Positions 19,345 through 19,906 of a stretch of 56,145 bases of DNA are shown here, in pieces. Under the pieces are notes generated by a model. It had not been told where the DNA came from. It made no database searches and saw only the letters and a list, made by a program, of their open reading frames with translations. Each line of letters opens with the position of its first letter. The stretch's first letter is position 1. The DNA is from a virus. Lineage: Duplodnaviria > Caudoviricetes. The DNA is taken from positions 1 through 56,145 of the IMG/VR virus record IMGVR_UViG_3300048858_000111, one strand, 5' to 3'. Both the position numbers and the translations under genes were made by a program.

Positions 19345-19386
19345 CGGCGGCCGCGCACCCGGGGTCGCTCCAGGTCGCGGCCGCCG
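19345..19386 (-). terminator. 11-bp GC stem after the minus-strand peptide operon
   Basis: CGGCGGCCGCG...CGCGGCCGCCG, 4 nt past the HTH stop. Confidence 0.5.
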
Positions 19387-19390
19387 GCAC

Positions 19391-19573
19391 TCACTTCGCG
19401 GCGGCCTTGAGGATCAGGTGAGCCTGCGACCTCGACAAGCCGGCCGCGTCCGCGATGTGCGACACCGGCACGTTCGCATCCTTCGCGGCCACGATCAGCC
19501 GGTCACGTTCCTCGAGCAGCTCGGCCCGCCGGCGCGCGTTCTGCTGCAGCTTCTTCAGCCAGTCATCAGTCAC
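19391..19573 (-). CDS. Small HTH regulator
   Basis: ERDRLIVAAKDANVPVSHIADAAGLSRSQAHLIL; GTG start overlaps upstream peptide gene. Confidence 0.78.
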   Translation of the reverse strand: MTDDWLKKLQQNARRRAELLEERDRLIVAAKDANVPVSHIADAAGLSRSQAHLILKAAAK

Positions 19574-19652
19574 GATTGCGCACCGCCGTGATGAGCGCGA
19601 CCACGGCGACAACGGCGGCGGCGATCGAGATGATGAGGGTTACTACCTCCAT
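19566..19652 (-). CDS. 28-aa single-TM peptide (not in ORF track)
   Basis: MEVVTLIISIAAAVVAVVALITAVRNRD; RBS GAAAGGA. Confidence 0.75.
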   Translation of the reverse strand: MEVVTLIISIAAAVVAVVALITAVRNRD

Positions 19653-19690
19653 GAGGGGTTCCTTTCGTAGAATGACCGGAGAGGCGGGCC

Positions 19691-19715
19691 CCCGAGATGC
19701 TGATTTCATCTCGGG
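19691..19715. other. Stem-loop between the two peptide genes
   Basis: CCCGAGATG-ctgattt-CATCTCGGG. Confidence 0.75.
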
Positions 19716-19726
19716 TGCCCCCTCTC

Positions 19727-19822
19727 TTAGTCTCGCTTCCGCTTTCGCTTGGCGGACCTCAAGAGGACTATCGCGGTGATCAGGTTGACCACTGCTGTCA
19801 TGAGAACGATGACCTGTTCCAT
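19727..19822 (-). CDS. 31-aa single-TM peptide with basic tail, type I toxin-like (not in ORF track)
   Basis: MEQVIVLMTAVVNLITAIVLLRSAKRKRKRD; RBS GAGAGGAGG. Confidence 0.78.
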   Translation of the reverse strand: MEQVIVLMTAVVNLITAIVLLRSAKRKRKRD

Positions 19823-19862
19823 GACTTCCTCCTCTCGTTCCGGGTATCTCCCGAACAAGATA

Positions 19863-19906
19863 AGTGTAGCATCACAAGACACTAGAGTGCAAGATGATAC
19901 GACACT
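19863..19906 (-). promoter_or_regulatory. Peptide-operon promoter with two tandem 21-bp palindromic operators
   Basis: Minus strand TTGCAC-18-TACACT with extended TG; AGTGT-N11-ACACT (19863-19883) and AGTGC-N11-ACACT (19886-19906). Confidence 0.72.

Follow-up and report, generated by a model that had tools for sequence, protein, structure and literature searches.

What are two membrane peptides of 31 and 28 residues doing beside a small helix-turn-helix (HTH) regulator in a prophage, and do the three genes form a unit of their own? The question is raised by a minus-strand operon in the virus record IMGVR_UViG_3300048858_000111, a complete record of 56,145 bp from a soil metagenome, with a G+C content of about 68%; the whole stretch is called the window here. 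A first-pass annotation of this sequence had likened the operon to a type I toxin–antitoxin locus and had proposed an autoregulated prophage module. The latter proposal fares well: the operon appears to be an autonomous, probably autoregulated accessory unit of a prophage, as it has a conserved promoter of its own, a terminator-like stem and a low G+C content, is swapped as a cassette, and recurs in a second locus, L004. From the promoter and operators to the terminator stem, the cassette occupies 569 bp (19346–19914, minus strand). We favour, tentatively and at a little under an even chance, the reading that it is an HTH-autorepressed moron which places two paralogous peptides in the membrane of the lysogen, with a role against incoming phages by exclusion or abortive membrane damage. 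The toxin–antitoxin label is premature.

A cassette that recurs in a second locus

The metagenome contig L004 carries peptide 1, a long hairpin, peptide 2 and the HTH gene in the same order as the window. Its parts are a 34-amino-acid (aa) peptide (513–617), the hairpin, a 33-aa peptide (688–789) and an HTH frame that starts at GTG 782. The start/stop overlap at the HTH gene, GTGNNTGA, is identical to that of the window. The L004 promoter, TTGCGC and TACACT with an 18-nt spacer, aligns column for column with the window promoter; furthermore, its TACACT, which falls in the matching column, is the sole sense-strand TANNNT in 561 nt of L004.

A check of conserved synteny had been proposed with the first-pass annotation. 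Gene order does recur in L004, but a tblastn search of phages with the HTH protein returned no match. Searches of viral contigs for further loci, with the HTH protein or with the peptide-1 alignment, gave none, and blastn of 18400–21200 against phages matched a single gene, a Mom-like one. A viral contig (L026), the single viral match to the back-translated pattern TAVVNL..AI, was dropped as a long open reading frame beyond peptide size, tape-measure-like by eye.

The two membrane peptides

Both peptides, missed by the gene prediction, translate as first described. Peptide 1 (19727–19822, minus strand; 31 aa) has one transmembrane helix, an Asn in its core and the tail RSAKRKRKRD. Peptide 2 (19566–19652, minus strand; 28 aa) has one transmembrane helix as well and ends in RNRD. 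Identity to the respective L004 homologue is 45% for peptide 1 and 54% for peptide 2, and all four peptides share an acidic residue 2 (E or D), a hydrophobic core of 18–22 residues and a basic tail. Extended frames of 47 and 51 aa were rejected, their starts lying within the hairpin loop and within the promoter.

Between the window and L004, the ratio of nonsynonymous to synonymous change (dN/dS, Nei–Gojobori) is 0.58 for peptide 1, 0.32 for peptide 2 and 0.29 for the HTH gene. Changes at codon positions 1, 2 and 3 number 13/9/12, 7/4/13 and 21/17/37, respectively. By both measures peptide 2 evolves like the HTH gene. Shine–Dalgarno sites precede both peptide genes in both loci, that of peptide 1 being strong. 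Judged from such sequence features, both peptides are probably translated genes.

The small frames might instead form a structured leader or upstream-ORF region that sets the amount of HTH protein, which would then regulate something else. Open frames of 30 codons should be common in DNA of 68% G+C, the changes in peptide 1 do not concentrate in third positions, and most inspected relatives of the HTH gene lack the peptides (two of three metagenome loci and all eight genome loci, see below). Yet both loci keep the ATG, the Shine–Dalgarno site, the hydrophobic core and the basic tail, even though the proteins have diverged by about 50% and dS is about 0.9. The peptide-1 motif TAVVNL is kept purely through synonymous changes (four, with no replacement), and the dN/dS of peptide 2 is near that of the HTH gene. 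We consider the leader explanation improbable.

Peptides 1 and 2 are 36% identical to each other, and the short DNA repeats D4 and D6 are common to both genes; they are probably paralogues that arose by an old tandem duplication. The idea of a peptide–peptide toxin/antidote pair, also raised at first, finds no support; the two look like paralogues of the same build. A complex prediction for the L004 peptide pair scored 0.12, which, run without controls, is evidence neither way. No family of Pfam, NCBIfam, PHROGs or PADLOC, toxin or other, matched the peptides with a meaningful E-value; the best Pfam E-values, 0.009–0.018, belong to unrelated membrane domains of unknown function (DUFs). The best score of peptide 1 in the ESM Atlas, 0.88, was to unnamed clusters and lies under the meaningful level.

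A translationally coupled regulator

The third gene (19391–19573, minus strand) encodes a 60-aa HTH protein and overlaps the stop codon of peptide 2 (GTGACTGA). The coupling described in the first-pass annotation therefore stands, and the start has been corrected to the GTG at 19573–19571, since the ATG within TGATG does not lie in the HTH frame. AlphaFold2 models the protein very confidently, with a predicted local distance difference test (pLDDT) score of 97.5, as a helix over residues 2–32 followed by two short helices. Searches of Pfam, PHROGs, NCBIfam and PDB profiles and with Foldseek gave weak, generic HTH matches, none at a curated cut-off or a significant E-value.

Relatives are scarce: two were found by a word-indexed protein search, and a full HMMER search among 1.84 billion sequences returned 25 representatives at E ≤ 0.001. 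By these searches the HTH family is rare. Locus searches gave three metagenome loci, with HTH proteins about 50% identical, and at first none, then one (L001) among genome contigs; the latter was dropped as a 206-aa TetR-type regulator. In 401 Actinomycetota genomes, a profile of the HTH protein matched in 24 (E ≤ 1e-4). Of the 20 genome loci returned, eight were inspected, namely the six best-scoring matches and loci L011 and L013 (among these is L007, of the unpublished genome G089), and in none of these eight does a small hydrophobic frame lie upstream of the HTH gene.

The peptides are thus absent beside the HTH gene in two of the three metagenome loci as well as in all inspected genome loci. 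In L003 (243–727) the upstream gene encodes a 91-aa soluble protein whose stop codon overlaps the HTH start as GTGA, and in L002 (1–272) the frame upstream of the HTH relative ends in a hydrophilic tail. Because relatives follow other upstream genes, we regard the HTH protein as a modular, downstream-coupled regulator, with the peptides as one possible cargo. The comparison suggests a portable regulator that is coupled translationally to varied cargo.

Promoter and operator-like dyads

The promoter lies on the minus strand where it had first been placed: the −35 hexamer TTGCAC (19887–19892), which occupies the same alignment columns as its L004 counterpart TTGCGC, and the −10 hexamer TACACT (19863–19868), 18 nt apart. 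The pattern TTGCRC-N18-TACACT, with at most one mismatch, has a single match in the window; one or more matches arose in 9 of 100 shuffles.

Two operator-like dyads cover the promoter. Dyad 1, AGTGC-N11-ACACT (AGTGCAAGATGATACGACACT, 19886–19906), spans the −35 hexamer, and dyad 2, AGTGT-N11-ACACT (AGTGTAGCATCACAAGACACT, 19863–19883), spans the −10 hexamer. Their centres are 23 bp apart, the units are 71% alike, and their right half-sites fall within the promoter hexamers (TTG-CACT and TA-CACT). The first-pass annotation had spoken of 21-bp palindromes; 21-bp units are indeed present over both boxes, but their inverted ends measure just 4–5 bp. The self-complementary pattern AGTGY-N11-RCACT matches exactly twice in the 56,145 bp, both times at the promoter, against 0.10 expected; none of 100 shuffles gave two or more. 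As the pattern was derived from these very sites, the test is one of uniqueness and not of discovery.

Between promoter and peptide 1, the 5′ untranslated region (UTR) folds into a small hairpin (19833–19860, minus strand; −13.8 kcal/mol, z −2.5), which ends at the Shine–Dalgarno sequence AGGAGG of peptide 1 (19828–19833, minus strand), 5 nt before the ATG. L004 has a UTR hairpin at the equivalent place just before its Shine–Dalgarno site (−12.8 kcal/mol, z −2.4). On the plus strand, a TAGAGT at 19883–19888 would face the gene of the neighbouring DUF4145 protein; it is not kept in L004 and was dropped as a promoter, being taken as a by-product of the dyads.

The layout of regulator and promoter recalls toxin-first type II systems, in which the peptides would be toxic and the HTH protein would both repress its own operon and neutralise them by direct binding. 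The order of cargo and HTH gene, the translational coupling and the dyads over the promoter all fit, and the L003 relative behind another gene, with its GTGA overlap, recalls the mix-and-match of toxins and antitoxins. With regard to the autoregulation of such pairs, dyads cover both −35 and −10 in the window, whereas L004 has one differing dyad around the −35. The L004 HTH protein matches the Pfam Xre-like-HTH antitoxin family weakly (E 0.002, below cut-off), and no antitoxin family in Pfam or NCBIfam was reached at threshold. In the predicted model, moreover, the long helix and the HTH fill the 60 aa, leaving no separate toxin-binding region, and the N-terminal helix of the HTH protein and the peptide tails are both basic. 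We therefore judge a direct antidote very unlikely.

Hairpins and a possible antisense RNA

Directly after the peptide-1 stop lies a long hairpin with a 19-bp stem and a 7-nt loop (19679–19726, minus strand). It had been noticed as a 9-bp hairpin, which is present but constitutes only the core of the stem. The fold reaches −43 kcal/mol (z −4.3), and none of 200 shuffles was as good; the L004 hairpin, also with a 7-nt loop, reaches −40.2 kcal/mol (z −4.9). At the other end of the cassette, the predicted GC stem was recovered (19345–19386). It is terminator-like without a U tract and has perfect 11-bp arms (19345–19355 and 19376–19386); the region 19290–19400 has a z of −3.7, and the left joint of the cassette falls at the outer edge of the stem. 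Rfam gave nothing at gathering scores for the locus; only microRNA matches at chance level were seen on the hairpin.

The −10-like hexamer TAGAAT, which had been proposed as a start for antisense RNA, is present on the plus strand at 19668–19673; as a promoter it is hypothetical. Upon it rests the type I explanation. Peptide 1, and perhaps peptide 2, would depolarise the membrane, an antisense RNA would start at about 19680 on the plus strand, and the HTH protein would add transcriptional control. We consider this system unlikely. Its central element would be a short antisense RNA from TAGAAT that consists mainly of the long hairpin and pairs with the message of peptide 1 at its 3′ end, leading to decay or a block of translation.

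The build of the peptides (28–34 aa, one helix, a charged tail) does resemble type I toxins as we know them, so that this part of the first-pass comparison holds, but the peptides match no toxin family in the databases named above and the locus matches nothing in Rfam. TAGAAT is rare, being one of eight TAGRRT sites in the 56-kb window, and L004 has a TACGAT (a TANNNT) on the same strand three alignment columns away, in a poorly conserved spacer (12 of 34 columns identical); by our rough estimate, such co-location has a chance of about 6%. However, no −35 is visible upstream of TAGAAT. The long hairpin folds on the plus strand too (z −3.4). The strong, exposed Shine–Dalgarno site and an operon with a transcription factor differ, to our knowledge, from what is described for type I loci. 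Tandem duplication of small hydrophobic genes, as seen here, is said to have served as a search trait for type I loci (PMC2887945, in the part consulted). Conversely, the consulted part of another paper places each known type I toxin family in a single phylum, SymE excepted, and the string ‘Actinobac’ is absent from its main text (PMC5367252).

A two-layer switch may also be conceived, in which paralogous pore-forming peptides are held by the HTH repressor and by a hairpin antisense RNA from the spacer, so that type I control and transcriptional control would be combined. Infection, or loss of the prophage, would trigger the switch by removing its short-lived controllers. We give this scheme little credence; if true, it would be without precedent among actinobacterial phages.

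Cassette exchange and the neighbourhood

Contigs of run X1 were compared with the window over 15000–25000. One related contig of 10,913 nt (record 3) matches 19272–19346, 19914–19969 and 20704–20806. In place of 19346–19914 (567 letters) it carries 978 other letters, and in place of 19969–20704 it carries 167. The first replaced block nearly equals the region delimited in the first-pass annotation (19345–19906); the block begins where the GC stem has its outer edge and reaches a little past both dyads. Because the block is swapped in the related contig, the unit is a discrete, exchangeable cassette, in other words a moron. Its G+C content is 48% in the promoter and UTR, 53% in peptide 1 and 67% in the HTH gene, compared to about 68% for the genome.

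The three shared stretches separate swappable blocks and look like conserved junctions of accessory cassettes; the junctions have no repeat elsewhere in the window. Two further short X1 contigs break at 19914–19975.

The second replaced block holds a divergent gene (20019–20678, plus strand). Its product of 219 aa combines a Cys4 zinc ribbon (CAFC...CDAC) with a DUF4145/HEPN domain (Pfam E 2.9e-16) and contains the motif RILGNDMAH; in the related contig this gene is replaced by the 167 letters. The abortive-infection RNase RAZR/PD-T7-4 is likewise built of a zinc ribbon plus DUF4145/HEPN, according to the consulted part of PMC13017515. By its domains, the protein is RAZR-like in architecture only; it has no match to PADLOC PD-T7-4 and no sequence match in the PDB. 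In the product of the next gene (20865–21131, minus strand), Pfam recognises DUF2188 (E 8e-23) and PADLOC the candidate defence family PDC-S16 (E 2e-23). With these DUF4145 and DUF2188 neighbours, the cassette lies in a stretch of optional, defence-type accessory genes.

On the other side, the last two plus-strand genes before the cassette are a Mom-like DNA-modification gene (18505–18954), with a weak Pfam match and 67% DNA identity to the gene of this type in Microbacterium phage Min1, and an excisionase-type HTH gene (18954–19181). Contigs of the metatranscriptome run X2 cover 18290–18447, 20886–21112 and 24837–25000; that at 20886–21112, on the DUF2188 gene, shows no differences. No X2 contig covers the cassette, which is uninformative on its expression.

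The setting also bears on whether the peptides could belong to lysis, as one-helix proteins that tune holin action or lysis timing. They are two tandem single-helix peptides in an actinophage, and lysis proteins with one transmembrane domain are encoded outside the lysis cassette in mycobacteriophage D29, as stated in the consulted part of bioRxiv 10.64898/2026.08.27.747656. The cassette lies on the strand opposite to most other genes, with its own promoter and regulator and more than 20 kb from the likely lysis region, and it is optional among related genomes, which makes a role in lysis highly doubtful.

The prophage and its host

At the left end of the window, an integrase and an ImmA-like metalloprotease are encoded on the minus strand; the other predicted genes are mostly on the plus strand, including the large terminase (23849–25537). 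The terminase matches 2,042 phage records, and the ten most frequent organism names among them all belong to actinobacterial phages or their genera; the closest match, at 51% identity, is Streptomyces phage Samy. Because the terminase matches actinophages and an integrase and an ImmA-like protease are present, we take the host to be an actinobacterium and the element a provirus. By gene content the record is that of a temperate actinobacterial phage integrated as a provirus. In the protein search, the HTH protein of the cassette was found on a record derived from a 121,418-bp contig.

Packaging and head genes occur a second time at 46000–56145, with a terminase (50491–52206), a portal (52406–53569) and a major head/protease gene (53503–55344). 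This second set is located behind a minus-strand repressor-like gene (47743–48075) and a low-G+C stretch. The record thus seems to hold two tandem phage-like elements, or a prophage and a satellite.

Proposed mechanism and points against it

We propose the following scheme on the basis of the conserved anatomy, the coupling geometry and the exchange of the cassette. The cassette would be expressed from the prophage. The promoter would drive an mRNA from about 19856, and the strong ribosome site would allow efficient translation of peptide 1. The long hairpin after peptide 1 could lower or process the downstream message, resulting in an excess of peptide 1 over peptide 2 and the HTH protein. 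The latter would be made solely by ribosomes that finish peptide 2, through the GTGNNTGA overlap. It may then dimerise via its long N-terminal helix, bind both dyads and shut the promoter, and this negative feedback would keep the peptides at a low, steady level. With an acidic residue 2 and a basic tail, the peptides are predicted to insert N-out/C-in and would act in the cytoplasmic membrane of the lysogen. There they might counter incoming phages, either by keeping phage DNA from entering or by damaging the membrane when repression is lost.

Such an antiphage role is favoured because of the defence-type neighbours and the prophage setting. As the first-pass annotation had proposed, the peptides may be toxic, may serve in exclusion, and could be silenced by the late transcript to which the cassette lies antisense.

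Several observations weigh against the autorepressed moron. A generic sigma-70 scan found no site in 18500–21500 and left the promoter uncalled. By our own count the promoter agrees with 7 of 12 positions of the E. coli consensus, a poor match. At the L004 promoter lies a different, single dyad, with 12-bp arms (TGTCCGAACGGC and GCCGTCCGGACA) around the −35, so that the operator sequence is not conserved; this would fit a diverged repressor–operator pair and proves nothing. Peptide 1 has no third-position excess (p 0.68) and its dN/dS is weak evidence of coding. Termination at the long hairpin is doubtful, as it has no U tract. Since two instances of the cassette are known, conservation rests on a single comparison. 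Lastly, the related contig and the window share a sample, and X1 is possibly the source of the window itself.

Significance and comparison with known systems

Gene callers routinely overlook small membrane peptides, and hardly any of those in actinobacterial phages has a known role. Should the peptides prove toxic or protective, they would represent a new family of membrane effectors carried by phages. An antisense RNA, if it exists, would make the locus a case of RNA-controlled peptide toxins in Actinomycetota, of which we know no described example, although no search of ours shows this. If neither effect is found, the cassette would join the many phage accessory genes of unknown role. As a clean, conserved and exchangeable unit of 569 bp with its own regulator, it is easily testable.

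Among type I systems, the Bacillus prophage-region loci bsrG/SR4 and txpA/RatA reportedly use an antisense RNA that overlaps the 3′ end of the toxin gene. The cassette shares with them the prophage site, a long hairpin that folds on either strand, a one-helix peptide of about 30 aa whose tail is charged, and, shortly behind the peptide gene, a possible start for antisense RNA. In contrast, its peptides have no sequence relation to a known toxin family, the antisense RNA is hypothetical and the host belongs to the Actinomycetota. Moreover, the cassette is an operon with a transcription factor, and its ribosome site is strong and open.

Repressor control of small membrane toxins is known from tisB and dinQ, which are under LexA control. 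Here, too, a small hydrophobic peptide follows a promoter covered by putative repressor sites; unlike in tisB and dinQ, the presumed repressor is encoded in the operon itself, which would create a feedback loop and not a stress switch. HigBA and MqsRA are toxin-first type II pairs with HTH antitoxins. The cassette resembles them in gene order (cargo first, HTH second), in its stop/start overlap and in its dyads over −35 and −10. It differs in that the cargo consists of two membrane peptides and not of an RNase, and in that no antitoxin family is matched at threshold.

Closer to the presumed host are the temperate actinophages, in which the proteins Sbash gp30/31 and CarolAnn gp44 are said to be larger than the peptides described here. 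Like these, the cassette consists of accessory genes of a temperate actinophage with membrane components and a proposed action from the prophage. In the comparison, which was made with the PHROGs and PADLOC families, the peptides had no match, and their defence role is a proposal, whereas prophage-mediated defence is described for Sbash gp30/31 (PMC6426596) and CarolAnn gp44 (PMC6426606) in the parts of these sources consulted.

Finally, a moron is defined as an independent transcription unit added to a phage genome (‘The moron comes of age’, PMC3594210, consulted in part). The cassette has the corresponding traits: a predicted promoter and terminator-like stem of its own, a lower G+C content, presence or absence as a block, a position between functional modules and genes for small membrane proteins. 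Unlike such morons, it brings a dedicated HTH regulator and two paralogous peptides, and its expression from the prophage is proposed only. The cassette therefore belongs with the phage morons that encode small membrane proteins, which are known, and its new part is the coupled regulator that it carries.

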